Below, piece by piece: positions 20,738 to 57,377 of a stretch of DNA of 64,000 bases. Under the pieces are notes generated by a model that did not search any database, was not told the origin of the DNA, and saw only the letters and a program-made list of their open reading frames with translations. The DNA is from Psammoneis japonica (lineage: Eukaryota), in NCBI GenBank assembly GCA_008632985.1, contig QPGO01000213.1, positions 1 to 64,000 on the forward strand, in the 5' to 3' direction. Each line of letters opens with the position of its first letter. Within the stretch, counting starts at the first letter, position 1. The position numbers were made by a program, and so were the translations under genes.

Positions 20738-21011
20738 CCGTGATTATCATAGAAAATCTGTGCCACAGATTTTGGTTCAAAATTAGTACAGATTTTCAAG
20801 GATTCCGGAGAAATAGATACAGATCCTCAAAAAGTATAGATTTGCACTGATTCTGCCAAAACTGGATTTGGGTTTTCTCAGATTTGAAGAACCCCTCCCC
20901 TGCTGGGGTACAGATCCCAGATTTCCGTTCAGAACAGGCACAGATTTTCTGAAGCCCTGAAAAATAGGTACAGATTCTGATTTTGGCACAGATTTTCTAT
21001 GACAATCACGG
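20738..21011. mobile_element. MITE with 28-bp TIRs and a TA target duplication (Tc1/mariner-type)
   Basis: Left end TA|ccgtgattatcatagaaaatctgtgcca (20738-20765); right end tggcacagattttctatgacaatcacgg|CA (20984-21011); many internal ACAGAT motifs. Confidence 0.85.
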
Positions 21012-26938: not shown

Positions 26939-27328
26939 GACGCGTTCCAGGTCTAGGTGGGACCTCGCACTACTGCACTGTGACATCGACAGTTTTTTGA
27001 ATCACGTCGTATGTCGCGCACGTAGATTTCTACGTGATTTTTTCGATATTTTGTGTCATTTTACGGTACACTTATTGAGCGATCTGTCCAACAACTTTTG
27101 ACATTTTTTGTTACAGCGCGATTCTATAATGTCTTAAGAATCGCGTAGGGCAGGCGCATTTGCAGAAACGTCGAGTGGCAAGAGGCATAATTGCACCACA
27201 AACTTGGCAGTTCATTTGATGTTGAAGACAAACAAATCCATTAATTAAATTCTAGCACTGCGGAGCTCGCACGTAGAATTCTACGGGCCCAATGTCACAC
27301 GGAGTCCCACCTAGGACTGGAACCCGTC
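26939..27328. mobile_element. 390-bp MITE with imperfect 25-bp TIRs and a CCAA target duplication
   Basis: gacgcgttccaggtctaggtgggac (26939-26963) pairs with gtcccacctaggactggaacccgtc (27304-27328); CCAA at 26935-26938 and 27329-27332; interior is TA-rich. Confidence 0.8.
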
Positions 27329-33736: not shown

Positions 33737-34237
33737 CTTGAAGGTAGATACAATGATCGTAGGAACCGAAAGCAACAACAACAGCAACTACGCCGCTAGC
33801 TAGCTAGTCTACAACGCAATAATGACAGCGTCACCGTTTTGGAGTTTTCGATCGTTCCATCTCCCGAGCGCCGGCCTCGGCGACGTTATTTTTGAACAGA
33901 AGTTCGAAGATGTAAATGGATTAAGTATACTTATATAGAAATCCAACTGGCCGGCTTATGAACGTATACAAAAATATATTGATTTTCAATCATTTCTAAG
34001 TCCTGTATAATAATATTATCTATAGATACTCACTTATTTCAATTATGATTATGGCCCATAAAGCTTCTACGAATAAATCAAGTATGTAGAAAAGCTATGT
34101 ACATTACACGCAAGGCACGACTATCAACGGAAAAACAAATATTTTTTTAGCACGAATCAACGTCGTGTGTACCGTAGACTACGGCGTGCAAGGAGCCTGT
34201 GCGCGACGCGCCGCCCCATGCATCTCATGCATTCACC
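33737..34237. promoter_or_regulatory. Conserved divergent intergenic region, copy 1
   Basis: Shares blocks with 55098-55560 (ttccatctcccgagcgccggcctcggcgacgttatttttgaaca; tatagaaatccaactggccggc; ggcacgactatcaacggaaaaa); lies between head-to-head genes. Confidence 0.6.
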
Positions 34238-36298: not shown

Positions 36299-37219
36299 GA
36301 GGTGCAGTTGTGAATTCTGAGAATTCTTTCGGATTTTGAAGTGGATTTGTAGTTTTTTGTCCTTGACCAAGACAAGTTACGGCGCCCAACTGTCCCTTCT
36401 TGATCTCTTGTCCATTGCCGGCACAGGAAAACAAGGATCAAGATGGTCGTGCATCCACAGCAGAGAAACGCGTAGAAATCATGCCAGAAAAAAATCCCAA
36501 CAATTTTCGTTTCTTTTCTCTTTGTTTGTCATGATCAAATGAGTGCATTTCTCATTGCAATTGACGGTGCACTTTGATGCAAAGTTCAGCATCCTGGTTT
36601 GAGGACTTCACAATTGGGAACACAAACAGGCACGGATGCGGAAAGCAGCAATTCGCTTGAGCATGCGAACTGCTGCAAGAAAGTTTTCTGTCTTGACAAG
36701 TCTTGAAGAGAGAATTCGAGGCCTGCAGTGCTGCTCTGGAGCAGCAGCAGCTCTCAAACAAAATGTGCACTGTGCAGTTATGATGGTCACATGCACCGTG
36801 TGGCAGCAACAACCTCATTTGTTGTTGCTGTTGTTCTGTTCGACTCCCGAGGGCTGATTGTGTGGTGCAACTCCGAGACACTCGGAGATCGAAAGGTTGA
36901 GGTGTCCACACTGCACGGCACTGCAAGATCTTGATTCTGCAGCCATTTTTTCAGGGGACGATGTGTCCTTTGCATCAACCTTTGGTCTTGGAGGCATGCA
37001 ATGCCCATTTGTGTGTGTGTGNAATGCCCATTTTTGTGTGTGGGGGGCGTGTGTGCCAACCTCCTTTGGGCACACATGAACACTGGGCAGCTGTGCCAAT
37101 GACAAAGATGTCAAGGTTTCAGAGAAGAGACTTCAAACCCGCTTGTCTAAATTGTGGCACACTTTGCCTTGAAGAGGCAGGTGGAAGGGTTTTCTGCTGC
37201 TGCCACCCACAAAAAACAT

Positions 37220-37620
37220 GTGTGTGCTGCACAGATTGCTGCTGCGAAGCACACCAGATGGGGTCATTTGTTGGCTGTTGACCAGCACACCCAGTGCCAC
37301 CACAGGGCTCACAAGGACATGCCAGAATGTTGGCCAAGCCAGTGGCTGAGAAAAAGAAGGTTTCTGAGCTTCTGAAAGGCATCTCTGAACCCAGATTGGA
37401 AACCAGGAAGAGTGTGGTGGATGGAAACCACACCAAGCTTGTGGGCTTTGAGGCTTGCAAGCAGCACGTCAAAGCTCTGGTCAAGAGTGCCAAGAGCCAG
37501 CACAGGAGGGCCAAAACTTGCACAACTGCCTGTGTTGGCCAACATGAGAGCAACTGACATAGAAAGCAAGGTGGCAAGAAAGGTGCAAAGAAGGAAACAC
37601 CTGGGATTGGGGCAGGCTGC
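37220..37620 (+). mobile_element. Ty1/copia (CoDi-type) gag remnant
   Basis: EKKKVSELLKGISEPRLETRKSVVDGNHTKLVGFEACKQHVKALV resembles the CoDi gag pattern KKV..FL.GI.D..L...K..V...KL..FE.CQQY (Tyr appears as His). Confidence 0.55.
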
Positions 37621-38549
37621 TGATGAGCAATGAGGCCGGCTCTGTCTGCTCTGCGGCTCCAGTGCATGCATGCGAGACCCCCTCATTTTTTTGGAATGCT
37701 CTGCATGGCAGAGTCTTGCACAAAACACACTTGCAGATCTAACAATGATCAATTGCACAGCATCAACAAAGAAGCCAGCACCTGCACCACCCAACAGATG
37801 TTGTCAAACTCATTGTAGAAGCATGCCAAGGTGCACTGGAATGGAGAGAATCGGCAATCAGTTCACTCCATTTCATCCAACGCTGAACCATCCCCAGTGC
37901 AAAATCATCACTTTTTTGGTTGGTGCTGACATGCTTCATTGATTGTCATCATGCACTTGGCTTTGTTGCACCTTGCAAGCCTTGGTGTGGAAATGTGTGT
38001 GTCTTGAGTGGTTGTCTTGTGGTTTTTGTCGTAAAATGGTTCTGTGATTTGTGAGAATTGACTTGCCAGACATGTGCTCACTTAGAGATGGGACTCTTTC
38101 TTGTCATGATGCAGGTTCTCAGCTCACACAATGCCAACAATGATGGTCAATGCTGCAGTGGATGCAGCAGAACCATCTTTGCTCTCACATTGCCTGCTTG
38201 TTTTCTCATGCTTGTGTGCTGCTTGATGACAGAGCCTTGACTGCCTCAAGAAGCCCCAAACCAAGCAAGATTGAATGTGGCAACAAATGCAAGGAGGAGC
38301 TGTCTGTGCAGACCTGGCCAATTTGTTCTTTCCAGGGGGGGGGGGAGGAGATTGTGCCAGTCCCGATGAGAATCACAACCAGCTCAGTGAAGTGGGGTCA
38401 TTCAAGCAGTTGTCAGATCAGAGCTCTTGTCTTCCCTCTGTCTAAAACACAGAGGTGAGAATCTTGTTGTTGTTTTGGTGCACAGGGTGCACCACATTTT
38501 CATTTTCCCTGTTGTGCTGACACAACACATTGTGTGTCTTCAAGGTCCA

Positions 38550-39250
38550 CTTTAAACTGTTGCAACCCGGAGAATCGCCCAAACTGGTGCCCTGCCAGTG
38601 GTGAATTTGATTGCTGCAAAGTTTCCTGCAACAAAAGCACTGTCTGAATTGAGCATTGATGATGGAATGGACGGGCACCGGTTCTTGCATGTCCTGTGGC
38701 AACAATGATCCACACTGCACCCAAACTGCAGGCTTGGTCCCAAATGTGGGAATTGCAGATTGGGCATGAGAAAGTTTGTGAAATGCAGCCATCATCGAGA
38801 AAAAGGCAAAACCTGGAGGCTCATTGCTGTCAATGGCACAAGAGAGGGTGAGCTCATTTGGGAGCACGGGTGAAGTCATTGACCAAGAAACAAGAAAGAA
38901 ATGCCTTGGAACATGGGCTGGATCATCCAAACAACCCCCATTGCTGCATGATGCATCTTGACACCAGACGGCACATTGATGCCATAAAATCCTGCAGGAA
39001 CATGGCTCCTGGCAAATTTCTGTGATGCAACCACCATTTTGATGCAAAGGATGTTTTCAATGTCAAGGCACCTTGTCGGGAAGAGAGTGGGAGGAAAACA
39101 GGAACAAGAAGTTGCAAGAGTGCACTTTGAGCATGACAAGAAATTTCTGTTGGACCTTGGCAAAGACAAAGCATGCAGACATTGGTGCATGTTTCCGATC
39201 TTGTGCCAGGCACTGCCAAAGACAAGACCATTGCGAGTGGACTGCAAGAT
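38550..39250 (-). mobile_element. Ty1/copia RT-RNase H remnant
   Basis: Fragmentary KIGNMH (DIGNAY-like), LLPQDMQEP (LPPNMPEP-like) and NSDSAFVAGN...FTTG (DSDFAG...STTG-like). Confidence 0.4.
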
Positions 39251-39499
39251 TGCAGTCAAGAGTTTGCAGTGAAAAGAAGGCTCTTCTTGTGGTGCATTGT
39301 CATTTTTGGGCTGACTTTGAGTGCCAATTAACAGCAAGAGCAGTGCCAAAGCACCTTGCTGTCTCTGCTTTGGCAAATTACAAAAACAGAAGAAGTGCAA
39401 GTGCTGCACATTTTCACTTTCCTGAATGTTGTGTGCTGCATTTCTCAAACACACGTTGTGTTTCCTGAATGTTGCACATTGCATTTCCTTTTCCCAAAG

Positions 39500-40200
39500 C
39501 ACATTGCGGTTGAGTGGAATCTTTTCAAAACAATGGCAAAGGGAGACTGGCTTTCCAGCATTGGGAGCCAGTCATGCCAATGGTGGGAGTCTCTGCAGCC
39601 ATCTTAATTTGAAGAAGCCTGCTGGCAACAGCGGCAGCAGAAAGAGAAAACAGAAGCAACATTGTGAGCACAATGAAAGGCAATGGACTGTGGCTGCTGG
39701 CACAACACTTGCATCTTTTCTGCAAGAGCCTCCATTTCCAGGAGCTCTGCATGCAATGCTTTGGAATCAAAGATGATCTTTTCCTGGGAAGCAATGGCAT
39801 CGCTGATGATTGCTGCCCTCTTCTTCTCCAACTCAGCTTTCATGACAAGGCACTTCCTTTTGACCTTTGATGCAGCAATCTTGGTGTCCCTGTCCATGTC
39901 ATTGGAGGCCAAAGCTGCCAGCATTTGGTGCTCCCAGCAGTGCTTCATGTTCACAAGCCAGTGCCACAAGACCTGCTGCTGGTCCGGCAGAAATTCATCC
40001 TGGAGCTCTGCTTGAGATTCCTCCAAGTCAACGATGGTCTTGCTGATGATGGCTGCCTTCTTCTCAAACAACTCTGACTTTTTGATGCATTGTGTCCTTT
40101 CAAACTTCAATGGGGCAATCTTCTTTTCAACTGTCAACAAGAAATTCTTGGCATCCATGTCATGGAAGGGGGCGAGGTTGCCGGACAAAGTGTGAACACT
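39500..40200 (-). pseudogene. Hypermutated partial paralog of the 53966-55097 gene family
   Basis: Intron, second exon and downstream flank align with 53745-54360 (gctggcaacag..gagaaaacagaa..ttgtgagcacaa..caatggactgtgg..gctggca); donor GTAAGT appears as GCAAGT. Confidence 0.7.
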
Positions 40201-40220
40201 CATGGTGCACAGCACCGTGT

Positions 40221-40427
40221 TGGGGAAAGTCTCCAGCCAGCTGCTGGCTGAAGAATCTTGTGTGGAATTTGTGCTGAAAGAGTCTGTCAATCTGCGTGTC
40301 AGGGGATTTTGGTGAATGCTGGACAGACTCGTCATCTTTTGTGCACACAACGATTCTGCTGGCAAAAGCCCCAAACGCACCAATGACCAGATTTTTTCAG
40401 CCAGCAGCTGGCTGGAGACTTCCCCCA
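40221..40427. mobile_element. MITE with about 32-bp TIRs, hypermutated copy
   Basis: tggggaaagtctccagccagctgctggctgaa pairs with ttcagccagcagctggctggagacttccccca; flanked by gtgt on both sides. Confidence 0.75.
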
Positions 40428-40451
40428 GTGTGACAACTCCTGCAGTGATTG

Positions 40452-41700
40452 CACCCCTGTGGCAGGGGAGAATGTGGTGATGTCACAATCATGTGGCAGT
40501 TTTGTGTCTCATTCATTGTGTTTTTACACAAATGATGTTCTCACATTCATTTGTGCATTTGTGCACAAATGCCAACAGCAACAGGAAACATCCTGAACCA
40601 CATTCTCCCCCAAAACTCTGACCACCAAAATCTGCAGGTGCTGTTGACACTGGTGTTGTCTTTTGCCAACAATGCCCACAATGAAGTGCCAACAACTCAC
40701 ACTTCTTTCTTTCTCACCCTGCTGCCTCCCAAAGATGCTGTCACAATGCAAACACTGCACCTGCATTTCAGTCCACTGGCATGCCCGATGCTGTTCCTTC
40801 TGCCCTTGCTGTCACAGGTGCTGTTGATGCTGTCATTGTTTTTCCTTTTTGGAAGGAGGACAATGGATGATGGTGGACCAGGAAACTGTCACCATGGCAT
40901 GCTGATGGACAAGTGTTGGTGTCATTGCCCTGCTGATGGACAAGTGTTGGTTTTGTTGCTGACATGCTTTCTGTGTTTGTTCATGGTTTTCCAGTTTTGG
41001 TTCAAGACATCTTCTGAAGAACTTGCATCCCGTTGGGCAAAGACACAGCAATCAACTTTTCAGGCATCAACACCTGTGTTGCACAAGTGTTCAGTGGGCT
41101 CTTTGCCTCCCTTTTGCTGGCCTGCAACATCAGTGGACATGAACAGCGCCTCTTTGTTGGCTCTTGAGTTTGGATTGATCTTTAGAATGTGTGCAGACTT
41201 GTGGTGCAGCTCTCTGTAAATTAGAAACCTGATGACATTCAGACAGCAGGCACTCTTTTGCAGTTTTTTAGTTGGAGAGGTCAGCAAATTGGCATTTGTT
41301 TGCAGGCAACTTGGCAAGGTTTCAAGTGGTGCATGTGACTTGGACACCGCACTCCATTTGCCAGGACTGAGTCATTGTCTGCAATTCCGTAAGATGCCAC
41401 TCTTGCTGTTTGAATTCTGCACACAACATGCAATGTGCTTTTTTGTAAGTTGCCAAAATGGAGGCAGGCTGCAATGTGCTTTTGGTGAATGCTCACTGTG
41501 TTTGTCACTGTTAGACCTTCTGAGCTGGAACCACATTGACAGCCATGCTGCCACTTTGCATGCACTGGCACCTTCTCCACCTGTGCTCCATTGGCCAGGG
41601 CCTCCTTCATGTTGATGCGGCTCATCTTGATGCCTGTTGTTGGCTCTGATTGGCTCCGCTGGGCTCTGGGTGAGTGTCAATCACCTCCAGACAGAGGTGC
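40452..41700 (+). repeat. Repeat-family copy starting cacccctgtggcaggggag; inverted copy of about 48200-49250
   Basis: The first about 180 bp match 47494-47670; 40630-41700 matches the reverse complement of 48200-49250. Confidence 0.75.
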
Positions 41701-43109
41701 AACAACATTTCAAAAATGAAAACGACTTGTCGTGCAAAAAGTTTGAAAATTTTCAGCTGTTGCCATTCATCTGGCCATCACATGTGCACTTTGACCTTGC
41801 AGCCTCTCACTCTCTCGTCCTCTTGTCCTCTTCCTTTTCTTCACAAACTTGGAGAGCCACCTGTGTGACCAGACATGTGAAAAAAATGAGGCAGGGCGTG
41901 CCGGAGAGGATGATGGATGAAGAAAGTCAAAGATGTGCCTCCGGTGGGCAGGAATTCAGAATTTCCAAGGTGCTGGAAATTTGAAAAGGTGCTGATTTTC
42001 TTTTCAAGTGCTGATTTTGAAAGGCACAAGTGCAGACAATCATTTGACGGCATGGCATCTGGCATCTGGCATCATGACAGATTTTCCTGATGCGAACACT
42101 CTCGCCATGACCTGCAAACATCACCAACCACTGGAGAGGACCCACCACCCATTGGCTGCAGCAGTCACCTGGTTCCTGCTGTCTTGCTCTGTTGGCATTT
42201 CAACCAGACACCTGACAAGCAAACAAATGCCATTCATTGCACTGATTGACCAAGCAACCACTGTCCACAAAATGGCGGCCCACAGAGCACCTTGCTCTTG
42301 CAGCTCTAGAACCTGTTGATTGCCGCATCAACCAGCGGGTGCGGCTCACAGTCTAGAACCCGTTGATTGCCACAACAACCAGTGACCCACAGAGCATGAC
42401 CTGACTGTCACTGCTCCAGAGAATGTTTTGATTGCCACACGAACCTTTCCACCACTTGTTGCTCCCAGCAATTCTCAGCTGTCATTGTTCTTGCAGTGGC
42501 ACTTGGTCACTTTGTCAGAGCTTTTGAGCTGCAACCCTTGACTTCTTCCTGGAGAGGGGCAGCATCACTCACAGGTGGCACAACAGCACGACTGCAGTTC
42601 ATTGATTTTTGTGATGAGCACCATGTTTGCCCCCCATGGTGGATGCTCATGCAATTGCTGGTGGGTTCACAGTGCACTCACACACCACACATGTTTCTGC
42701 ATTTTGGCACATGTGATTGGCGGCAGATTGCGACACATCCATGCACTGCAGCTCTGCTTGAAATGGACATTTTGCATTCATGGTGCAGCAATTTTCAGGA
42801 TGATCTTTGCGCATGCAATGCAAAGGGCGGACAGAGCAATTGATGGTTGTTTTCATGGCTCTCTGCTCCAGAGCTGGAGAGCCTGCTCTCTCTCTGCCGC
42901 AGAGCTGCCACTCTCTGCCAGAAGACACTGTGATTGCATGCAAAACATGCCAGGACAGATGTTGCAATTTGTCACATGCATCCAGACACATGGCGCATTT
43001 TGACAATGGCACATTGATGTCGCATGTTGATGCATTTTGACAAGAGCTGTTCTTTTGCCAACCGAACTCATTTCAATTGCCAACCCTGCTCATTTTGATT
43101 GCCAAAAAT

Positions 43110-43625
43110 TGGCAATTGAAATGAGCAGCATTTGAGCTTGTTTGAGCACATTTGAGCATGTGTGAGCAATTTGAGCACATTTGAGCAAGGACATTTCAGC
43201 GCACAATCCAAATGGTGATGAACTGTGAAACCTTCCGTGTCCCACTGTTGGAAAGATCGTGCACACCAGCAGTTGCATGTCCTCCTGTGAAAGTCCTGCC
43301 AGAAATTGAAAACCTTGCACAACAGCCAATGGATGGTTGCCCATGCAATGTCTGCCCCTGCAGCTCTTTGCGTGCTGCGCTCCAGGGCGATCAACAAGAT
43401 GCGCTTGGCCTCAGCACTGTGCGTGCCCATTTCTCTTCTTCTTCATTTGGCGCTGTTGTGTCTGTTGGTCAAGGAGAATTCAAATGAGCAGCATCTGAGA
43501 ACAATGATTCAAATGAGAAGCATTTGAGCACAATGACTCAAATGAGCAGCATTTGAGCAAATGAGCAGCATTTGAGCCTTTTTGAGCACATTTGAGCACA
43601 AATGGCAATGATTTGAGCACAACTG
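43110..43625. repeat. Two clusters of 10-12-bp TTTGAGCACA/AAATGAGCAGCA repeats (possible transposon subterminal repeats)
   Basis: Visible at about 43115-43200 and 43480-43620, upstream of the pogo-like transposase. Confidence 0.65.
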
Positions 43626-44039
43626 GTGATGACATCAGCAAATTGGTGATGAGAAATAAATGCAAATTTTTGCATTTGAACAAATGTTCATGCTGCAGAA
43701 TCCAACGCAATTTGACGCAGAGCCAAGAAATCCAGACCTGTGAAACTTCAAATGCTCCATTTTGACACCCTTTTGACACTCGCAAATGAAAGATCTGATT
43801 GCGCTGGCCAGGAAAAAAATTTGCCCGACTCCAAAATTCCATGTCGTTGTCATTTATGCACCTCAAAAAATGTTTCCTTGTGACTGTTGATGGGATTGAT
43901 GTTGCACATTGAGGCAATTTTTTGTCACACGCAGAAACAATGCTGACACATGCGCAGGACACCACCAAGATTTGGCACCTCATTTCTTTTTCTAAGATCA
44001 ACCATGGCACCACCTTTGAAGCCTCCAAAAATGCAAAAA

Positions 44040-45560
44040 GATGCAAAGAAGGCCAAGCTTTCTTTTGCAACTGACTTCTTCTAAAAAAACATCGTGGTCA
44101 TCCAAAGAAGAAAAAAGTGGCACTCGCAAAGGATGCTGCAAGCAGCACTGCCAGAATCAACAAGGCACTTTCTGTGCCCAAGACAACAAAGAACTGGGCT
44201 GCCAAGAATGCTGCAGCAGCTGAGAACAATGAAGACAAGAAGCGCAAGGCATCAACAGATGGCAGCAAGAGTGATGGGTTCATTGCAGCAAAGAAACCAA
44301 GGATGAGTTGGTCCAAGGAGCCTCATCTGTCAATCATGATGGGCATGGCTTGGCAAGAAGGACCCAGCTTTGTGACAGCAATGGAGAATCTCATTCAACA
44401 GAAGCATTTGCCAGTGTCATTGGAGTGCCAATCATCACCTTCAGAAAGTGCATCAATGGCGACCCTGCAAAATGACATCAGATTGGCAACAGCCTTGGAA
44501 GAAAGCCAATTGTCAATGTGACATCCCAAGAGGTGATTGCGCAATCAATTGCCAAGCTTGAAAGAGCCAATTGTGGACTTTCAAAAACAGAATTTGTTGA
44601 TCTGGTTGAGCAAGTGTGCCCAGATTTAAAAAGCCACAACAGTGCAGCCAACCACTTCTGAAGGACGGTGCAGCCAAATCATGCAGAAACCATCAAGAAG
44701 AAAGAGCAAAAGGCTCAGGCAACAACAACCAAATGAAGTGCAGCCACAATGGATGGTCGATGTTGGTGGTTTGTGGAGGTTGAGAATGCTTCAAACTTTC
44801 TCAGGAGCAGGAACGTTGGTCGCTGTGGGGTGACAGGCAAGCTTTTTGGCAAGGTTGTTCAGCATTTTGTTCAGGTGGGTTACGAGTCTTGCTGCATTGT
44901 GTCAGATGGCACCGTCTGTGTTGTCTGTTCTCTTGGTAAAAAGAAACATGAGAAAATCTTGCACAACTCTTGTGTGTCAATGTTGGTTTGTCACACGGGT
45001 TCTGCCCCTGGATGCCAGGCCCCCCCTGTTTTTCTTCTTGCTGGTTTGAGGAGGCATGCAGGGTCATGCACCGATGTGCATCTTAGAAAGCTGGGTGCTG
45101 CCAAAGGTTCCACAATCATCATGACCCTGGCTGCTTTCATGACAGAAGAAGCACGGGCAAAACAACTCCCACTGCAGCGTTGGGTTGCAGAAATGCTCAT
45201 CCAAGGAAAGCAGCAGCCAACAACCTGCAGTGGCAGACACTGGAGACACTTGATGGGTTTGGTCCGCACTTCTCTTCATTGGAAGCCATGGAATGCCATT
45301 GGAACAACAATGTCATGTTGTTGAAAGAAGAAGGTGATGCATCGCATCATGCCAATCAATCACATGATCAACTGGAGGCAGCCAGTGACAAAGATCTCAA
45401 GCGTGACAGGCTTGGGTCATGTCAAAGCACTTGGATGATGAGTCTGTTGCAGCACTGGCATGACAGAAGACAAATGTCACATCCATCAGGCCATGGCTGT
45501 GATGACAGCTGCAGCAACAACAAAGACAAAAGTTTGCAAGCCCAAGGCTCCTGCAGCATG
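44040..45560 (+). mobile_element. pogo/Tigger-type (DDE_1) transposase pseudogene, hypermutated
   Basis: KKKHEK, PVFLLAG, GSTIIMT..AFMTEEA, LDGFGPH, LLKEEGDASHHANQSHD (Tyr appears as His in the NQxYD-type motif). Confidence 0.7.
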
Positions 45561-45926
45561 TGACTGTTGCACACATGTTTGCAATCATGTGTTGTTTGTG
45601 TGTCAATCGTGCCACAGTCGTGGATGCATGCAAAGGACAGAATGATCACACAGAGTTGATCGGATGTCGAAAATTGCAAACACAATCAATTGACGATGTT
45701 GACATCTTGCGTGTCAACAGCAATTGCACCCGGACAATCTGTTGTCATGAACATTTTCTCCGAAAGGCCTTTTGTCTGCAGAAGCAGTGCAGAAGCTTCA
45801 GGCCATTGAGAACTCGTTCGGAGAAACCAAAAATCACAGAGCAAAATTTAATCTTGCAATTTTCACTTTTCACACTTGATTCTGCTTTCATTTGCACTTG
45901 TTCTTCGAGCACAGTGCACTCCCAAG

Positions 45927-46810
45927 ATGGGGGGAGTTTTCTCTGTCGGTGCTTCTGAAATGGTGGCTTCAACTGGCGGGAAACCCAAGGCTGACTGGTC
46001 CGGGCTGGACCCGTCTGCTGCCCCCAATCTGACGTCTCTGAATCAGTGTTGCTCTCACCATGTCTCTTCTGCTCAGAAGAGGTTTGCAAAGAAGGGAGAT
46101 CTCGCAACTTTTGAGAAAAATGTCTTGAAACATCTCAAGGACTGTGGATTGGACACAGCGACTTGCCTGCGGGACCCCAAGGACTCAACTGCAATGATGT
46201 CCTTCATTGAAGGACATCCTCGTTGCTCCAAATTGAGTGTCACTTGCCTTGTTGCACCTCAACTTGCCAAGCATGATTCCTGCAACACCTCCAATTGCAG
46301 GGGCACTGCTGAGTTTCTCAAGAACTTCATGTTGGAGACTGGTCCTGCAGACCCTCCAGTTGGATCTGGAGACAGAAGAAATGGATTGCTTCCTGAAGGT
46401 TTGGGTCACTCTCATTTTGATTCTACAGAGCACATCTGTCAAATGCTTCAAGCAGGTCAAGAAGCAGCAGGAGAATCTCAAGCCCTCTCAGTTTGCCCTT
46501 CCTTTCTGAGCTCTGCTGTCTAAGTTCAAGACTGCCACTCAAGAGTTGGATGTTGTGGGTCAGCATGACAACAAGTTGACACTTGCCTTGGTCAACTCAT
46601 GCTTGGGGGCTGCCTGTGTCATGGAGAGAACAAACAGCAGTTCAAGCACACTCTTCAAGCAATGAAGGAGGACTTCATTAAGGCACTGGTTGAGACAGCT
46701 CACAAGAAGTCCAAGACAGATGCAAAGCAACACCTTGCATCCAAGAACCTTGCCTGCTCCCAATGCGCTTTGGATTTTGAAGCAGATTTGCAGCTTTTCA
46801 TCCTTGAGTG
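45927..46810 (+). mobile_element. Ty1/copia CoDi-type gag remnant, hypermutated
   Basis: TGGKPKADWSGL, HLKDCGLDTATCLRDP, GQHDNKLTL; positions expected to be Tyr read as Cys or His. Confidence 0.7.
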
Positions 46811-47493
46811 AGACAAATTGCAGCTCCCAACTGTCCCTTCTTGATGTCTCCTTCTCCATTCTAGGATGACAAGGATTGAGATGGCTCTGCATCCATCCAA
46901 GGAGATGCATGTTGTGCTGTGCCAGCTTGCAGCCAAACAATGAGTCTTGGTGGCCCCGCGTCAGTGCCCACAAAATTGCCCCTTTGTGGGGATGGCCACG
47001 CACCAATCTCCATTGGGTGCACACAAACATTGGGCAGCTGAGCCAATGACAAACATGCCAAGGATTCAGAGGGGGATTCAAATCCACTTGCATCTCCTTT
47101 CTAGATTGCAGCACATTTTCTGTGCAAAACTCCACTTGGTTTTGACTCCTTTGGCTTTGGCTTTCTGAGCACAAATTTTGAGTGCAGCTGTGTGCATCCA
47201 GAAGGATTTTGCAGACAGCTGAAGGTTGTGTTTTGTTGCTCTGTGCTTTTCACCCTCTTTCTCATTCCAGGTTTTCTTGCAACAGCAGCAGTGGGAACAG
47301 AAAACAGAGGCAAGGTTTTGTGAGCAGCAATGAAGACTGTGGCTGCTGGTGGCACAACACTCACACCGTCTTTGCATGCTGAGAGTTGCTTTCATGCTGG
47401 GCCTGCGCCATTTGGCGCATGTAGAATCTCGTGTAGAAATCACGTGCGCCACTGTGGCGCAAAATTTGTCACGCCCTGAACTCCTGCCTGTTC

Positions 47494-49616
47494 CACCCCT
47501 GTGGCAGGGGAGAATGTGGTGATGTCATTGTTGCGTGGCAGTTTGTGTCTTGTTCATTGTGTTTTCACACAAATGTGCTTGCATTCATTTGTGTGTTTTC
47601 ACACAAATGCTGACAGCAGCAGGAAAAATCCTGAACCACATTCTCCCCTAAAACTCTAACCACCAAAAACCAAGGGCACGGAAGCGCACTTTTTGAAGAC
47701 AGCGCACACACCAAAACATCACGCGTTTCGACAACTTGACCATGACGACCTCCCGTTCTTCATCCCCCACACCACCTGATGCACACCCACCTGCCGTTCC
47801 TGACACGGCAGTCTCTCCTGCATTGGCTGGTGCCGTCAAACCCGCTGTTGTAACCCAAACACAGCACATTTGCGATCCTGAAGTTTGGGCCCATTTTCAT
47901 TGGATCCAAAATTGACCGTGGCTGCCATTGCCGCCATTTGTCATTGAGTGCTGCAATCAAGCACAATGCAACAACAAGGCGAAACAACCCCACTCGTGCT
48001 GCGACTGCCATGGATGCAAGCAGGCCTGGTGGTGGCAGAGCAAGGCAATTTTGCCAGGATCAACAAAGGCATGGGATCAACAAGCACCAATGCACTGGTC
48101 GATGCTCCTTGTGTGGGCGTGGGCATGGCAGAGGACCATCTATGATGGGAGGCATGGTGACAACTTTTCTCAGGATGATTGTTCCCAAGCAGAACCTCCT
48201 CCATCTGGAGGTGATTGAGACTCACCCAGAGCCCAGTGGAACCAATTGGAGCCAACAACAGGTGTCAAGATGAACCGCAGCAACATGCAAAGGAGGACGC
48301 AGCTGATGGAACACGGGCAGAGAAGGTGCCAGCATGCAAAGTGGCAGCACAGCTGTCGACATGGCACTGGTTTTGAAGGTCTGACAGTGACAAACACAGT
48401 GAGCATTTGCCAAAAGCACGTTGCTGCCTGCCTCCATTTTAGCTGCTTACAAAAAAGCATGTTGTGCATCACATGTAGAATTCAAATGGCGAGAGTGGCC
48501 TCTCATGGAATTGCACACAATGACCCAGTCCTGGAAAGCAGAGCAGTGTCCAAGTCACATGCACCACTTGAAACCTTGCCAAGTCACCTGCAAACAAATG
48601 CCAATTCGCCAACCTCTCCAACTTGAAACTAAAAAACTGTGAAAGCATGCCTGCCATCTGGTTGTCATCAGGTTTCTAACACACAGAGAGCCACACAATG
48701 TGTCTGTACATTCTAAAGATTAGACTGCACTCGAGAGCCAACCAAGAGGCACTGTTCATGTCCATTGATGTGTTGTCCATCAGCAGGCCGTGGTTGTGTG
48801 GGTTTCCTGGTCCGCCGTCATCCATTGTGCTCCTTCCAAAGCAAAAACAATGACAGCATCAACAGCACCTGCGGCAGCAAGGGTGCGATTGACAGTGTCG
48901 GGCATGCCGGGGGCCAAAACGCAGGTGCGGCATTGGGATTCGTGACAGTGTCTGTGGGAGGCAGTGGGGCGAGAATGAAAGAAGTGTGAGTTGCAAGCAC
49001 TTCATTGTGGATGTTGTTGGCAAAAGACAATGACAGTGTCAACAGCACCTGTGGCAGCAAGGGCAGGAGCAACAGTGTTGGGCATGCCAGGGGGCCAAAA
49101 CGCAGGTGCGGTGTTTAAATTCGTGACAGTGTCTGTGGAGGTGGTGGGGCGAGAATGAAAGAAGTGTGAGTTGTTGGCATTTCATTGTGGACGTTGTTGG
49201 CAAAAGACAATGACAGCATCAACAGTGCCTGCGGCAGCAAGGGCAGGAATGACAGTGCTGGGCATGCCAGGGGCCCGAAACGCAGGCATGGCTTTGGAAT
49301 TCGTGACATTGTCTGTGGGAGGCGGTGGAGTGTGCAAACAACAGTGTGAGTTTGTGGCATCTCATTTTGCATGTGTCACACCCACGAGAACCGGAACAAT
49401 GACATCACCTGTTGTGTCAGTGTTGTTGGCAATGGCATCAGCAGGATCGGTGTCCTGGGAAGGCGATGGGGAAGAACCACGAGGCATCATCATGGTCAAG
49501 TCATCAAAATGCGTGTTTTTTGTGCGGAGAAAAGAGCTGCCAGAAGTGCGCTTCCGTACCCTCGGTTTTTGGTGGCGTGGTTTGAACACACACACAGCTC
49601 CCCTGCCACAGGGGTG
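47494..49616. mobile_element. Segment bounded by inverted cacccctgtggcaggggag termini (long-TIR element, or two copies facing each other)
   Basis: 47494-47512 matches the reverse complement of 49598-49616; extended inverted homology between 47660-47760 and 49470-49575. Confidence 0.65.
48842..49370 (+). repeat. About 180-bp tandem repeat, roughly 3 units
   Basis: caaaa(g)acaatgacag..caacag..cctg.ggcagcaaggg starts at 48842, 49021 and 49201. Confidence 0.9.
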
Positions 49617-49839
49617 CTCCCACTTGACTTCCGTGTCAAGCAATGTTGGTTGCTTGGCTGGATCCTGCAACAAGAACTCCGAGACACCCTTTTCCTTGGC
49701 GATTCGTCGAGGAAACATGAGAGTCATCTTTGCCTTTGTCAACACCATCAGCAAAATTTGCCATTCTGTCATCATGCCGGACTGGGGCAGTGGCTGCTTC
49801 AAATGTCTTGAAACAAAGGAATTGGTTGACAACTTTTGA

Positions 49840-52669
49840 GTGGGAAACCGACCAACACGAGAGCTCAGGCAACTGGTCATCAAATGTGGAGGTGCCACTT
49901 CCTGTGAAAGAAAACGCATGCTTTCTGCCCTTGCGATTCTTGGTGCAAGGTTTGAGGCAAACGATCATGTCGGCAAGGTCATTGATGCATGGGCACAGCC
50001 CATTCATTTGGAGAAACAGGCTGAGATGAAGCTTTGGCAGGAGGAACCAAAATTTGTGGCAAAATGTCTGAGCCTTGAATCGATGCAGAGTCAGTTTAAA
50101 GGGGTCTTTTCTCCTTGGTGGGATGCGACGCTATCTTCGTTTGACATCAAACAATGCTTGTCAGAGAGGTCAAATCATGAAAGTTGTGTTTTTGTTGAAT
50201 TGCTTGACATGGCCGTCGGCTCAGGATGCTTTGATGCTGCCATGTGGCTTCTGATGCATTGGAAGGCTCCGTCATCAAAGTCACCTGACATGTGGTGTCA
50301 CTGTAAAATCATGGAAACCGCACTGACCGGTTGGATCCACGATGACATGTTTGCCGTCGATGAGGAGACTCCTCCTCTCTACATGCATGGGGCAAAAGAC
50401 GTCATTGAAGAAACCATGGGGTCCGACTGTAATCCAGCCCACGAAAGGTCGAGAATCAACGAATTTTTTTGGGGTGTGGACTTGGGCGAAGGCGATCGAT
50501 TCGACCTTCACTCGGTTTGGAGAGAAATTCACAAGAAGGCCCCTGCGCATGAGGCCAATGAAGACAGCGAAATTTGGTTCGGTGTTCCACCCAAGATCTT
50601 CACCGCAATCAAAATGGCGTGTACATTGCCGCCGAGTGATTTCGAAGAATCCGGGCAAGCGAAGCTTTTGGACTGTTTTCTGGAAACTGTTTACGACGAA
50701 GACTCCAAATTCCTCTCGGCAGACCTCCCGAGCTTGGCAAAGTTCGTTGTGCTGGACCATCTCCACTTCTTTCAATTCCTCACAAAGCAAAGAAGTAGCA
50801 CAGATGAGACCGTCACTCAAAGCTCATTTCTTGACCTTGACATGCCACTTCTTTGCCCAGTCACCCATGTTTGTGGTTCGGATGAAGCTGACGACGCGGC
50901 CATGACGGACGATGAGGATGTCGAAAATCCATGCTCGATTTGTTTGGAAGCCATGGCCAACCCATTCAAGCTCAGATGCGGGCATTGTTTTCATCACAGA
51001 TGTTTTTTTTGCCATGCTTTCCCTGAGCTGCGAGACGGAGCTGCTGCATCAAGCTCGACAGATGGTGCAAATGAAGTGACCCACGAAGTCCTCTCGACAT
51101 TGCCGAATCTCTCATTTACCCTCGCTAAAGCGAACTGTCCTCATTGTCGCCAATCTGTCAAACCAAGCCTTCAAGAGGCATTTGCACTGAATTTGGCCGA
51201 TGGACTAATGAGGACAGACATGGAACGAAGAGAGCGCCCTTGTTCGCCTCACCTCGATCTTGCAAAGTTTCGAACTGGAATCACAGTTGGCGAATCGCTC
51301 TTAGCCTTCGCGGCATGCAGCGGTGCCATCAGCATCTTTCAGTGGCTCGTTTTGGATTCCGGAGTGAAACCTAATGACGTCTACGCTGGCGATGTCAATG
51401 TCATGCATTTCGCCGTAGCTCACAAGCAGGTCCTTATCCCCACTCCCAGCGCGAACCATGCAGTGGTTCGCCGCGCGAACTCACGAATGCGCGCGATTCC
51501 TGCCCCGAACCATCAAGTGGTTCGCGGCAAGCCAAAAACGAACCGATAGACGATGGGTAAAAGTGTAAAAGATAATGAGATATCTACAATAACATTACAT
51601 CAGTCGATACAGCAACGTCTGTTTGACAATAAGTATGCTTTATTTTAGTGGTTTACTATGTTCTTAAACTTCTCCGTACTGCTACCGTCTTGTTCATCGT
51701 GAGCCTCATTTTTCTGGTTCAATTTTGCATTCGACCCTCTGGTACAAATTACCACGTATATTTCTACGCTCGTCCTCCCGAACCACCTCATGGTTCACCA
51801 ATTCTACGGGGCTCCCGGTACTTATCTACGCAGCGAACCGCCCAATGGTTCGATATTTTTTTCTGGTACTGCCCTACGGTTGTTTCTACGGGGTGAGAAA
51901 ATCACCGCCAACGACCATGACGGTGATTTGACGGCGACCGAGCTCCACACACGAGTGGCGGCTGACAACATAATGCATTGATAACAATGGCTTTTTGCCT
52001 CTGTTAAAAGGTTGTATCTGTGTAGGTACTACTTTATTGTGTCAGTTGCGAGTTTTACGCTACGCAAGTTGCGAACCACTGAGTGGTTCCATTTTTTGCC
52101 CGAGTGGGGTTATCATACGTTGGCTGTGCCTTAACGGCTATTCATCCATGCTTTATGGTAGATTGCAAAGGAGTGCGTTCGATACTTTTGAGCCTTCCTT
52201 GAACTCTGGCACTTCGATGCATGATATTGATCTCAACCTTGATGACAAAAATGTCGCCAAGCGACTGCTATTTTGGAAACGAAAGTTTGGGCTCGCTTCA
52301 CTTCGAAGTGATAACGAAAGTTATGAGTACCGGTACGAAGAGCACGAGCTGGAGCTTCTCCACGAGTTGCCAAGTGACGAAGAAACTCATATTCTGGGTC
52401 TTCAGCGAGTGTCTGAGGACCAGAGTCCGATGCATTATCTACTGATGAATTCCTTGACACACTTTGAAGGACCTATGAGTGATTTACTTTTCAAGCTTTT
52501 ATGGTCTCTTGGTGTATCTGCCATGCCAGCCAACTGGTACCAGCTTGTACTTTCTTTGAGCGTGGACCCAACCATTCGTTCGAATGCCAAGGCGTTCTTG
52601 TCAAAAAGAAGTATTGACCCCTCCTCTGTGTATAACCTATGGGCAACTTCCCAATATTCTGCAAGATGA
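49840..52669 (+). pseudogene. RING-finger plus ankyrin-like protein interrupted by a piggyBac-like insert; 5' part hypermutated
   Basis: CSICLEAM...LRCGHCFHHRC...CPHCR. Removing 51438-52109 plus one TTAT restores HFAVAHKQVL-IIRWLCLNGY in frame. The start codon is uncertain. Confidence 0.75.
51438..52109. mobile_element. Non-autonomous piggyBac-like element (672 bp) with a TTAT target duplication
   Basis: TTAT|CCCCACTC...GAGTGGGG|TTAT; five internal GAACC-N7-GGTTC palindromes. Confidence 0.85.
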
Positions 52670-53965
52670 GGCACGCTGGGCTCTCAGGGTTTTCGAGACT
52701 AGCTTGGAGCCGGTGAACTCAGAAAGTCCCTGTACTCGAGAGAAAAAGAATTTCCAGCATAGCGACGTTTACGTCGCTTATTCACAAATCAGTTTCCGGT
52801 TCGGCTGGCAGGAAAGAGTAGAGAAACAGCCACGATAGACTTGGAGTCTTACGTGTAGCATAGTAGACCTAGATATGAAATAGGCTCACTTTACTTTCCA
52901 TGAAAATGTCGCTCTACATCACGATGCTTCTCTAGAATGCTTTGTCAACCTCAAAAACATAGTAATAATATACACTTGAAATCCATCGACGTGCTACTGC
53001 TAGTCCCCAGCAGATCCCAGATATGAGACATGCCGACACAGATGCTTGCACCGGTGTTGAATTCCTCCTGCTCCTGGCAAAAGCAAATCGGGAACGACTG
53101 TCACATGCAAACGAGTAGTCCGCCGAACTTTGAAAGGGGAGAGCTCTTATGTTGTACCAGATAGGAGCAGACGGAACGACGAGACTGTTTCAGTATCCAA
53201 TCAACGAGAACTAGAAGAGAAGGCACGGGAAGTACAGTCGGACTGTCGCAACAACACTGCTGCGAGAAAAGCTGGGAGAACTATGGAATTTGCAACATGA
53301 TCTTGCTAGGTCCGGGACGGGCTTTGGCCTTTGGGCACCACACAAAGTTCTTGCCGAAGCCGACCCCTCGCCAGTCGCAGCAGCAATCGACGTATGTTTC
53401 CAAGAATAAGAAGCGAAATCACGGAGACGGAGGGCTGTCGTATTGAATTGGCCGATTCTAAACCTGTTGTACATAGCTATCGACTATCGATTTGCTCAAT
53501 GTACGCACAATAGAACGTGTCTGACACAACAGTCAGAGCCCGCTAGAGTATTAACGTATTCCCTTTCCTCTTATCGTACTTCGAACATGTGGTACTAGTT
53601 TTAGATTCTAAACGTGTGGTGCACAATTCTTACCGGTATGCAAAGTGGCAGCACAGCTATCGATTTGGTACTCGTTTAGAAGGACTAGAGTAACGAAAAA
53701 CATAGTGAGCATTACCAAAAGCACGTTGCTACGCTACCTACGCTACCTGTCTCTATTTTAGCAAATTACAAAAATAGTATAAGTACAAGTGCCGCACATT
53801 TTGACATTCCCGAATATTGCATGTCGTATTTCCTGAATAATGCATGTCGTATTTTCCAAATACTTCGTCTTGCATTCTCGAAGGTTTCTCGTTGCATTCC
53901 CCGAACATTGCACGTTGCATTTCCCTTTCCCAAACACATTGAAAACGAGTCGTATCGATTCAAAA

Positions 53966-55097
53966 TCAAGGCAAAGGGAGTCCGGCCTTCTTGCGCCGGG
54001 AACGAGTCATACGGGCCGGAGTCTCTGCAGCCTTCTTGCGCGGGGTCTCGAACGCAGTATCACCTGCAATAGTGGCCTCCTTCTTGGGGGTGGCATTGGT
54101 GCTGGGCTCTGGGGTAGTAGCGCCATTCGCCACGTTTTCCTTGGCCATGGCGTCACCGCTGTCCTTCTTGCTCCAGCTCATACGACGAGGCCACCAAGAG
54201 CCGCCATTGGCAGTTCCGTCCTCCTTCTTTTTCGCCTTCTTATCTTTTTTGAGTTGAAGTAGCCCGCTGGCAACAGAGAAAACAGAATCAACGTTGTGAG
54301 CACAACAAAGGACAATGGACTGTGGATGCTGGCATGACACTTACATCTCGTGAGTGAGAGCCGCCTCTTCAAATTCTGCCTCTGCATCTTCTATCTGAGC
54401 CTCTATGAAATCGTTCTCTGCGGCCTTGCGATCCCTAACGAGGTCGATGTGCGTTTCGGTCCCCTTATCGGCTACTTAGATAGCGGCAGACGCATTGGCG
54501 AGGTGCTGCTGCTCCTTTAGCTCACACTCTTTGCGCAGCTCTTTGGCTTCCTTCGCAGCTTGCATGGAAAGTTGACCAAACTCTCGCGCTAAATCATTGT
54601 TGGCCGTGAGCTCTGTTTGACCGTCAAGGTGACGAATTTTCGCGTTGACACTTTTCTGGTGCAGGAGGCCATGCTTCTTCTTACGCGCGGAAGCCTGCTT
54701 GACCATCTTTTCCTTTTCGAGCTTCAACTTCGCAAGCTTGGTATCGGTATCGTCGGAGGCTGCACTCTCCGGGGTACCATCAGCACCATGGTTGGTGGCA
54801 GCTATGGCGGCCGCCTTGGGCCCCGGCGTGACGACCTTGGCGGGAAGAGAAGGCATGCACTTGTCACGCGTTTTCTTCCAGCGGCCCTTGTTCTTGGATA
54901 GCCATCTTCCCACCGTCGCTTCCTCGCCCGGAAATTCCTCATCGAGCTCACGAATCATCGCATACAACGTCGCCGCTTGGAAGTTATTCTCAAAGATGCA
55001 ATCCAACTCGCCACGAGTGGCGGGATTAATGATTAATCACTAACCTGCGCATCGTAGGATTCTTAGAGTACCGGTAGTTACTGGATGAAGTACTCAT
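53966..55097 (-). pseudogene. Paralog of the 32638-33736 gene (frameshift and premature stop)
   Basis: MSTSS start, PATRGELDCIFENNFQAATLY, DGTPESAASD; 7-bp duplication attaatc at about 55026-55039; TAA at 54476-54478; intron 54344-54267 has the same GCCAG|CGGG junction. Confidence 0.75.
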
Positions 55098-55667
55098 CTT
55101 GGAGATAGATACAGTGATCGTAGTCGTAGGAACTGAAAGAAACAGCAACAGCAACAACGCCGCTAGCTAGTCTACAACGCAACAATGACAGCGTCATCGA
55201 GGACCGACGCGTTTTCGATCCTTCCATCTCCCGAGCGCCGGCCTCGGCGACGTTATTTTTGAACAAAGGTATTAAAAGATGTTAATGGATTAAGTATAAT
55301 TATATAGAAATCCAACTGGCCGGCAAATCCTATATATAAATACGTTAAGGTTCTATATAGATTTTGAATCATTTTTAACCTTCATGGCATTAGGATCGAA
55401 AAATATTACTTCTATTGATTCTGATGTTTTTAATTATGAATATTTATGTAACCGTCAACTAAGAAATCACGTAGGTAGAAAAGCTACAAAGTTACACGCA
55501 ACGATCGAGAACGGCACGACTATCAACGGAAAAAACAAATATTTTTTCAGCACGAACATCATCATCTGCTCTGCTTTCAGGAATTTGAACGACAAGAAAC
55601 AACAACACACAGTCGACTGCTTGCTTGTTGCCCCAATCTGGTGCTGTTGTTTGTTAGCTCCTCAAAC
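55098..55667. promoter_or_regulatory. Conserved divergent intergenic region, copy 2
   Basis: Homologous to 33737-34165. Confidence 0.6.
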
Positions 55668-57377
55668 ATGGCTCATTTGCGTACCGGCCGTCCCGATGCT
55701 CCCTCTTTTGAGAAATATCAAATAATAAAGGATGATACGAGTAAATGGGATTTGGTTTTGCGTCGTCCAGATGGCAGAGAAGCGTTTCTTGAAGCCTTCA
55801 AGAACGAGCGTTGTTTCAGAGACATTGTGATTGCCCTCAGAGACAACCCTCAGAGCCAAGTGCAGGAAACTACGAGAGTGCTCTATGGCATGGTGGACAT
55901 TGTCCACAGCGATACGACCCCCAAAACAATTGACGAGATCGACGTGCGCGGATTTCTCGACCATGAAAAACGGCTTGACGACGAGGCCGTGAGAGCTCTG
56001 TCGAGACTTCTGGAGCAGTGCAAAGTACCCGGTTTGGCTTGTGGTGCCGCCATGAATCCCGGTGGTGCTATGTTGCTGGATCGAGCACTGAGAAACAACC
56101 AATGGTTGGTGTCGGCTTCAGTGAGCGATGGATTGCTCGGGGGTGGAATGGGCAGCAACCGCAGCTTGCAGGAGCTGCTCGTATTTGCTCAAACTCATGT
56201 CGAGGGATACAATGAAGAGCGCAAGATAAAATTCTTCAATGGACTCAAGGTCAACAATTCGCTGCGAGAATTGACAATTCAGTTTCATTCTTGTGGCCCA
56301 GATGCTGCAGATGCATTGGGTGATGCGATTGCTGAGAATGGAACGCTCAGAAGCCTCCACCTTGAACATGAAGAAGGCGGTTTTCTTCAAGACCGAATCT
56401 TGAGTCAGGTGGGAAGAGGGCTTCGATACAACACGTCGTTGCAGTACCTCGCGGTTCGATATTATCCCTTCCACAGGGAAGGGTTTGAGACATTTGCGAC
56501 GGCCTTTCGGGAAAATCGAACTGTGGAGACATTGGTGATTCAATCTTTGGAACAAGTTGGGCCTGTGGGCGCAACTCACTTGAGATCAATTCTGCTGGCC
56601 AGCAGGTCTATCAAGGAACTTACTCTTGCTCTTGATTCATGGAGCACTGAGCTTGATCGTGCGATTGCCGAGGGACTTACCGGTAACGCGGTTCTTGAAG
56701 AGCTGTGTCTGAATCTCGCCGTGGATCCTCATCGCTTTCGTTTCGATGATCTTGAGCTCATAACGACAGCTCTTGAACTTCACAACAGGACTCTTAAGTC
56801 TTTTATTATTGAAGAGACCCGCGATTGCACGATGGGGTTGGAAGCGGCGAATCGCTTCAAGGCGATGCTTGTGGCAAACGATGCAATCGAGGAATTCACG
56901 GTGCATTGCGAGCTTTCGGAAGAGAGTGCCCATGTGATTTTCGAAGCATTAGCTGACAATTCGACATTGAAAATCCTGAGGCTTGGGTGCAGTAAAAATT
57001 TCGATTCTGTTGACAATGCCGAAGAAGTCAAGACGTTGTTGAGTGAGGGTCGAAATCGGTCCCTTTGCAAAGCGGGGCTTTGGCTTCCAGCCGAGAAGAC
57101 GAACCTGCATAACGAAATTGTTTATCTCTGCAAAAGGAACGAGGTTGGATATTGGGATTGGTTGAAGGATGTCAAAAATTGGTCGTCTACAAAGGCGCTA
57201 GAGGAGATTGTGAATCTCGAGCTGACGAGTTTGGATGAAACTCGTCTGCTTTTCGATTTTATTCGAGCCACGCCGACGGTTTGCAACAAACCGAGGACAT
57301 TCGCTGTCAGGAGTGGATGCCCTTTTCGGAGGCTCTACTGCTATGAATGCACCAAAGAGGGCACGGGGGATGAATAA
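55668..57377 (+). CDS. RNI-like leucine-rich repeat protein
   Basis: Repeated N.SL.EL.I / N.TL.SL.L units (LKVNNSLRELTI, IAENGTLRSLHL, LRYNTSLQYLAV, LADNSTLKILRL). Confidence 0.8.
   Translation: MAHLRTGRPDAPSFEKYQIIKDDTSKWDLVLRRPDGREAFLEAFKNERCFRDIVIALRDNPQSQVQETTRVLYGMVDIVHSDTTPKTIDEIDVRGFLDHEKRLDDEAVRALSRLLEQCKVPGLACGAAMNPGGAMLLDRALRNNQWLVSASVSDGLLGGGMGSNRSLQELLVFAQTHVEGYNEERKIKFFNGLKVNNSLRELTIQFHSCGPDAADALGDAIAENGTLRSLHLEHEEGGFLQDRILSQVGRGLRYNTSLQYLAVRYYPFHREGFETFATAFRENRTVETLVIQSLEQVGPVGATHLRSILLASRSIKELTLALDSWSTELDRAIAEGLTGNAVLEELCLNLAVDPHRFRFDDLELITTALELHNRTLKSFIIEETRDCTMGLEAANRFKAMLVANDAIEEFTVHCELSEESAHVIFEALADNSTLKILRLGCSKNFDSVDNAEEVKTLLSEGRNRSLCKAGLWLPAEKTNLHNEIVYLCKRNEVGYWDWLKDVKNWSSTKALEEIVNLELTSLDETRLLFDFIRATPTVCNKPRTFAVRSGCPFRRLYCYECTKEGTGDE

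Follow-up and report, generated by a model that had tools for sequence, protein, structure and literature searches.

TpA loss reaching from a transposon block into an ankyrin/RING gene duplicate, and its end near a piggyBac-like MITE, in Psammoneis japonica

Introduction

Integrated viral DNA of Bigelowiella natans is subject to TpA hypermutation, which has been measured in mutation-accumulation lines at two viral inserts as an active rate raised about 1000-fold (Mettrop et al., bioRxiv 10.64898/2026.01.13.699255). In the portion of the preprint considered here, an ADAT2-like adenine deaminase is proposed as the enzyme, as a hypothesis, and the main text within that portion does not treat leakage or edges. 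Mutators linked to repeats can overrun their targets, as described for RIP in Leptosphaeria maculans, which overruns from repeats into single-copy neighbors (PMC3105345), and the transposon islands of diatoms have been reported to be CG-methylated by DNMT5 (PMC9998398).

The DNA analyzed here is a stretch of 64000 nucleotides of Psammoneis japonica (contig QPGO01000213.1 of assembly GCA_008632985.1, positions 1 to 64000, forward strand), referred to as the window. An initial annotation, made from the sequence alone, described a single RING/ankyrin-like gene that is poor in TA before a piggyBac-like insert and normal after it, and suggested that a mutator spreads from a transposon block into the gene and stops near the insert. 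The spread, the fading and the nearby end of the damage are borne out below, whereas the insert is not favored as the stopper.

The signature in the window matches the TpA hypermutation of Bigelowiella, a recently described process. T>C and A>G changes are confined to TpA and affect both strands, and depleted DNA lies alongside normal DNA both in the blocks of the window and in 39 sampled stretches. According to the available portion of the preprint, the conversion of TpA to TpG or CpA on both strands and its regional confinement are common to the two systems, and the TpA-depleted clusters of Bigelowiella include transposon domains, as here. In contrast to the rate measured there, the record in P. 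japonica is a fossil one from another lineage, covers about half of the sampled DNA, and is accompanied by CpG decay and by a leak into a host gene copy. The targets described in that portion are viral, whereas here they consist of transposons together with a duplicated host gene, with no viral origin seen (in the upstream block, by Pfam only).

RIP, as far as the cited source was consulted, resembles this process in that a repeat-linked mutator overruns and recodes adjacent genes. However, RIP changes C to T at CpA and thereby creates TpA, whereas here TpA falls while CpA and TpG rise; RIP is also triggered by duplication and strikes both copies, whereas the second copy of the gene and the 3' half of the fragment are spared here, a comparison weakened by the copies being 81–87% alike. 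The DNMT5 islands, in the part of the account drawn on here, share the island pattern of CpG loss on transposons, some of which reaches into neighbors, but decay of 5mC yields CG to TG/CA and not TA to TG/CA, the change that runs ahead at this locus. In the literature searched, TpA-to-TG/CA hypermutation was found in the Bigelowiella preprint alone, with nothing on this process in diatoms, and the portions consulted held no account of how TpA hypermutation is aimed or stopped. A search by title listing returned no report of a MITE stopping or bounding a mutator.

The Gene Fragment and Its Intact Paralog

The locus (Table 1) holds a fragment of an ankyrin/RING gene whose only other full copy in the genome, an intact gene of 1504 codons on contig C136, runs in one continuous stretch without the insert. 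The fragment corresponds to paralog codons about 155–945, with ~155 codons missing at the start and ~560 at the end, and its two halves are collinear with the paralog at 80.5% (5') and 87.4% (3') identity in the alignment. A 1-bp frameshift lies near 52602 in the 3' part, and the open reading frames 49840–51549 and 51974–52669, on which the initial annotation was built, each extend partly into the insert. What had been taken for a single gene is one locus split by a real insertion, but it is a truncated, dead duplicate beginning at 49653 and not a whole gene.

Table 1. Coordinates of the features discussed, in positions of the window.
Feature	Position	Strand	Basis and remarks
TpA- and CpG-depleted repeat block	36400..49652 (start approximate)		dinucleotide counts, 1-kb windows
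2.1-kb multi-copy non-autonomous element, ends CACCCC/GGGGTG	47494..49616		183 matches in own genome
5' part of truncated duplicate of the C136 ankyrin/RING gene	49653..51437	+	alignment; TpA-hypermutated with gradient; RING match PF13445
Nonsense codon TGA (CGA in paralog)	49837..49839	+	alignment
Edge of mutated domain	51330..51372		last TA-to-CA change 51330; TpA kept from 51372
Left target-site duplication TTAT	51434..51437	+	insert junction versus C136 paralog
piggyBac-like MITE, 672 bp, 41 TA all kept	51438..52109		ends CCCCACTC/GAGTGGGG; absent from C136 paralog
Right target-site duplication TTAT	52110..52113	+	insert junction versus C136 paralog
3' part of duplicate	52110..52684	+	alignment; not mutated at TpA; homology stops at 52684

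The possibility that the C136 copy is an allele was rejected; because its flanks are unrelated to those of the fragment across 90 kb of the contig, it is a paralog. Background divergence outside TA and CG is nearly the same in the two halves at silent sites (pS 0.193 in the 5' half versus 0.189 in the 3' half) and lower at replacement sites (pN 0.097 versus 0.068), and the gaps of the 5' half (nine-plus-five) sum to in-frame events. Because the halves have equal pS, with pN lower, and the reading frame is maintained across the gaps of the 5' half, the window copy is one old duplicate with halves of the same age, which was under selection for some time.

The intact paralog itself has been spared, although it ends within about 1 kb of a sharp depleted block near position 44000 of C136 (L033), where TA numbers 2 at 43001–44000 and 37 at 44001–45000. 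An internally deleted form of the gene, with codons ~330–420 joined to 1040–1400, occurs at no fewer than six loci (L082, L084, L085, L086, L088 and L091, on C49, C149, C3, C47 and C181); these are TA-depleted and CpG-rich, have 2.3–3.5 kb in common, and look like a piece of a gene transported within a mobile element.

TpA Loss along the Fragment

The comparison with the insert-lacking paralog that the initial annotation had proposed shows that C136 keeps the TpA lost in the window. Only 12 of 53 paralog TpA sites are retained 5' of the insert, as against 14 of 16 on its 3' side (Fisher p=4.7e-6), and 32 of the 41 lost 5' sites now read TG (20) or CA (12). T>C or A>G changes have occurred at 34/104 TpA bases in the 5' part and at 2/32 in the 3' part, whereas the other T contexts (TC, TG, TT) show only 7–18 changes per ~260 bases. 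CpG retention is similar on both sides, 64/99 versus 17/24 (p=0.64), and the 5' part thus does keep most of its CpGs and some TAs, much as described earlier. The TA count per 200 bp is 0–4 at 49001–51400 and 7–15 at 51401–52800. The TpA changes are blind to coding, with a pS of 0.33 and a pN of 0.32; because silent and replacement sites were struck equally, these changes post-date the lapse of selection, and the gene copy was probably already dead or dying when mutated, so that this was no attack on a working gene.

The effect on the protein agrees with the tyrosine counts first noted, namely 3 Tyr in the 532 codons before the insert and 9 in the 185 codons after it, of which 2 belong to the frameshifted tail and 7 fall within 163 aligned codons. 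The paralog has 18 Tyr among the 575 codons aligned on the 5' side, of which the window copy keeps 3, while 7 have become Cys and 4 His; all 5 Tyr in the 159 aligned 3' codons are kept. The Tyr share of the paralog is 3.1% in both parts, and six distant homologues have 2.9–3.8% (5') and 2.5–3.8% (3'). The lost residues include some present in 6/6 homologues (paralog positions 342, 525, 636 and 679). An asymmetry inherent to the protein, which would have told against a mutator, is ruled out by the paralog and the six distant homologues, none of which is asymmetric. The asymmetry is real and mutational. The C136 partner is unmutated along its whole length, and therefore position, not shared sequence, aims the mutator.

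Mapped along the gene, the loss forms a gradient followed by a step, in keeping with the fading edge suspected from the start. Retention of TpA in successive bins from 5' to 3' is 0/9, 2/16, 4/10, 0/4, 2/6 and 4/8, that is, from none in the first 350 bp to half in the last 190 bp of the 5' part, and past the insert it is 7/7 and 7/9. Within the 5' part, retention increases with distance (Spearman rho 0.37, p=0.006), a trend that weakens to p=0.07 once the last 100 bp are removed. According to a logistic model fitted to the sites of this part, 51% of TpA would be kept at the insertion site. The step lies before the insert: TG or CA is found at 6/10 sites in 51051–51330 versus 2/20 beyond (p=0.007), and TpA loss stops 65–105 bp short of the insert. 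Loss of CpG is also concentrated upstream, at 13/34 in the first 700 bp of the gene versus 14/89 farther on (p=0.013). TpA loss thus reaches ~1.7 kb from the block and CpG loss ~0.7 kb; the damage is a leak from the transposon block in which TpA loss outreaches CpG loss and ends stepwise near the insert. On the spared side of the fragment lies the remaining part of the pseudogene, and gene-like frames follow only ~1.9 kb away.

The Upstream Transposon Block

TA content in the window alternates blockwise between about 40–60 and 0–10 per kb, and one low block spans ~36.4–51.3 kb. The repeat block within it has 0–9 TA per kb and a CA+TG observed/expected ratio of 1.6–2.0 (1-kb windows starting at 36501–49001), and is the likely source of the leak. 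A Pfam search with 12 ORFs of this block gave no match. The 2.1-kb element that adjoins the fragment upstream, which we infer to be Mutator-like, has 14 TA in 2124 bp; other copies are bordered by ~9-bp target duplications (L160, L166, L169), and the element is TA-depleted in all 20 loci examined, with 6–88 TA across spans of 1.6–3.6 kb. Its flanks in the window do not match each other, which suggests that the 5' end of the gene was lost at or beside it.

Several copies of the 2.1-kb element (L164, L167 and L168) have lost TA between flanks that look TA-normal on either side; it can therefore seed mutation without spreading it. Elsewhere in the window, 53630–54350 and 54710–55556 are TA-normal with depleted relatives at 39359–39716, 41471–41561 and 48334–48425, the last sitting within the 2.1-kb element, and 54710–55556 is a 73% duplicate of 33146–34156. 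Three long host-like ORFs (25151–26767, 34955–36298 and 55479–57377; ankyrin, ARM-like and LRR-like) have 5–29 TA per kb with normal CpG, and probably represent further leaks into genes. About half of the 390 kb sampled over 39 contigs (L041–L079) is TA-depleted. The direction of change, TA to TG/CA after insertion, is set by pairs of target duplications (L006–L009, L016, L024, L153–L171) such as TTGA/TTAA and CTGG/CCAG, with L166 and L169 as examples of the 9-bp kind.

The Inserted Element and Its Family

The insert, correctly described as TA-rich (Table 1), has 8-bp inverted ends and five GAACC-N7-GGTTC palindromes starting at 51453, 51507, 51780, 51835 and 52073. Its ends are of the CCC...GGG type typical of piggyBac. 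The 4-bp target duplications match, or differ by TA-to-TG/CA, in 15 of the 17 two-ended copies of the family (L010 and L021 mismatch), and the targets are NTAN: TTAA in 2/17, the others being TTAT, CTAA, CTAG, TTAG, GTAT and ATAA. The name piggyBac-like is upheld by the 4-bp duplication, the inverted ends and the palindrome, but not by a strict TTAA target. According to the part of the literature consulted, piggyBac carries a 19-bp transposase-binding palindrome at bp 17–33 (PMC7351741). The terminal palindromes of the MITE lie at bp 16–32 of the left end, the corresponding place, and 21–37 bp from the right end, and the two share a duplication with a central TA; the piggyBac target is strictly TTAA, whereas the MITE family uses NTAN and the MITE contains no transposase. 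A search for an autonomous partner with a DDE_Tnp_1_7 transposase gave 16 PF13843 matches genome-wide, and none of the 15 loci examined had the MITE's ends or palindromes within 1.5 kb.

The window MITE has no private change outside TA and CG in 487 sites, and older copies have lost up to 36/41 TA; its TA richness is therefore expected, and it appears to be TA-rich mainly because it is young. The copies with at least 55% TA loss (7/14) carry 2–9 private changes with a mean of 5.4, counted without L012, L013, L014, L020, L024, L026 and L027 (outside two tight subfamilies), and zero private changes has a Poisson probability of 0.004 when judged by this mean and of 0.14 when judged by the lowest count. 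Across copies, private changes rise with TA loss (rho 0.70, p=0.005, without the half copy L018). About 80% TA loss is found alongside 1–2% other changes, which is a relative measure only. Copies with at least 19% CpG loss have 6–9 private changes; because the CpG loss of the gene's 5' end matches theirs, the silencing of this end looks older than the insert.

Older copies have been invaded from the depleted side (~200 bp in L015, about half of L005) or wholly (L006–L009, L007, L013). When flanks are classed as depleted (18 TA per kb or fewer) or other (28 or more), exactly one 500-bp flank is depleted at 9/21 full-length copies, or 8/20 without the window copy; 6 partial copies (L018, L022/L023, L025, L028–L030) and 14 weaker matches were left out of the count. 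This exceeds the null, drawn from 39 hand-spread 10-kb stretches, which is 18% when a gap of 672 bp is allowed for (p=0.007, or p=0.017 if the window copy is omitted) and 8–10% for a point insertion (p=0.0005 without the window copy). With 1-kb flanks, counted without L026 (short flank), the excess is weaker, at 8/20 (p=0.04 including the window copy; p=0.11 when only loci in contact with a depleted domain are compared). A control MITE of 390 bp lies at edges at 2/30 loci (Fisher p=0.009 without the window copy) and forms a TA-rich island in depleted DNA at 25/30, these being best matches and so biased. Because this unrelated MITE is also TA-rich in depleted DNA, finding TA richness in a young insert does not indicate a barrier.

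The 390-bp MITE (26939–27328 in the window; L107–L136) is a high-copy element with 1509 candidates, inverted ends of the GACGCG/GGGAC type and a 4-bp duplication of any sequence; its best-matching copies keep 19–29 TA, more diverged copies in random stretches have 3–11, and it seems to prefer silenced blocks. Another domain edge of the window is occupied by a 278-bp TIR element (20736–21013) with ~20 near-full copies, and 20730–21020 has a 100% copy on contig C534. Within the piggyBac-like family, L010 shows no private change; its duplications disagree, reading ATAG on the left and CCAG on the right, the adjoining 500 bp on the right contain no TA, and its junction reflects either a donor-derived overhang that was later mutated or a rearrangement. 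At L013, the MITE splits a 10-bp satellite whose left units are TA-less and whose right units mostly keep TA, with a target duplication that reads TTGT on the left and TTAT on the right.

Origin of the Edge

The reading we favor, with a probability of roughly 0.55, is that the leak mostly came before the MITE, which then landed at its edge. An old ankyrin/RING duplicate would have been functional for a time and then lost its 5' end beside the transposon block. A mutator guided by position, converting TpA to TpG/CpA in silenced repeat DNA, would have leaked ~1.7 kb into this copy, fading with distance, with a slower CpG decay reaching ~0.7 kb; guidance by silenced chromatin is suggested by the blockwise distribution and by the CpG decay that goes with it, and the enzyme would be an adenine deaminase, as proposed in the portion of the Bigelowiella preprint considered. 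The young MITE, which requires NTAN, would have inserted later, just past the edge of the leak, possibly because it favors open chromatin at block margins, and new copies would later be eaten from the depleted side. This order of events is a reconstruction, and several observations stand against it. An edge within ~100 bp of the insert needs either coincidence or edge preference, as just 10% of random TA sites are depleted on one side. A smooth gradient followed by late insertion predicts that 10 of the 16 3' TpA sites are kept where 14 are seen (P=0.027, with fit error ignored), and is mildly disfavored. L005 has lost 20/41 TA with just 1 private change, so the mutator can be fast enough to have acted after the insertion in the window. 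The target duplications of L007, L012 and L013 are mutated solely on the depleted side, and the damage at these loci therefore post-dates insertion and stopped in, at or just beyond the element. Finally, the MITE sequence in the assembly may in part be a consensus drawn from nearly identical copies: one contig shows 4 differences, and the identical twin of the element, L018, breaks off at a gap of NN.

The MITE may instead have been in place during the spread and acted as a barrier, with a protein bound to its palindromes (transposase or host factor) or open chromatin stalling the front until the element eroded. The family's excess at edges (8/20 against the 18% null, with 2/30 for the control) speaks for such a role, as do the position of 4 of the 6 youngest full-length copies at edges, the retention of 44/44 TA in L010 directly beside 500 bp with none, and the satellite at L013, which is TA-less on the left of the MITE alone. 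Nevertheless, a barrier is the less likely reading: copies within depleted domains lose 57–82% of their TA, change-points vary from the near end to past the far end with none at the palindromes, the edge excess shrinks with 1-kb flanks, and at least five edge loci (L007, L010, L012, L015, L020) have on their spared side a long Tyr-bearing ORF that could itself set the edge. The comparison also rests on a null of 39 hand-spread stretches and on a control family biased to TA-rich best matches that prefers depleted DNA. A tRNA/Rfam search for a possible insulator at the locus gave no match.

Pure decay with distance, in which the mutator fades ~1.7–2 kb from the block and the insert lies there by chance, fits the 51% retention expected at the insertion site, the presence of edges in most of the 39 sampled stretches, and the choice of this locus for its coincidence; it is less probable still, as it does not account for the step from 6/10 mutated sites just before 51340 to 2/20 after it and leaves the family-wide edge excess unexplained. 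The insert as a passive spacer present during mutation was rejected, since ~8/41 TA would be expected to be lost and none was (P ~1e-4, rough logistic fit). Misassembly, the joining of halves from different loci through a repeat, had been named as a refutation of the spread and is very improbable. No single contig of the public DNA run spans the whole element, and the assembly carries scaffold gaps beside repeats; however, the halves are collinear with one paralog, share their background pS and meet at a perfect 4-bp duplication, the sole other full genome copy is without the insert, and both junctions are bridged (the left with 0 differences, the right with 4 differences inside the element) with a depth of ~60 in both halves. 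The run is probably from the same sample and so not fully independent of the assembly. Its contigs, which drop rare variants, contained no empty-site allele, the sole joint that skips the insert having paralog letters.

Implications

The gene asymmetry alone adds little. New here are the paralog-controlled reach of the mutator and the family-level tie between one MITE and the edges of mutated domains. The unmutated paralog and the internal control half let the reach, the blindness to coding and the recoding of Tyr to Cys and His be read directly, and the MITE family offers about 20 edges as replicates, at which target duplications allow the damage to be dated, so that what sets an edge is testable. 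It is a tentative and rather unlikely proposal that MITEs of this piggyBac-type family serve as mobile and temporary boundaries of a DNA-editing defense domain. If it were true, a MITE that lands near a transposon block would for a while keep TpA editing from passing its near end and shield the DNA beyond, and transposon insertions would draw the map of where the genome gets rewritten.
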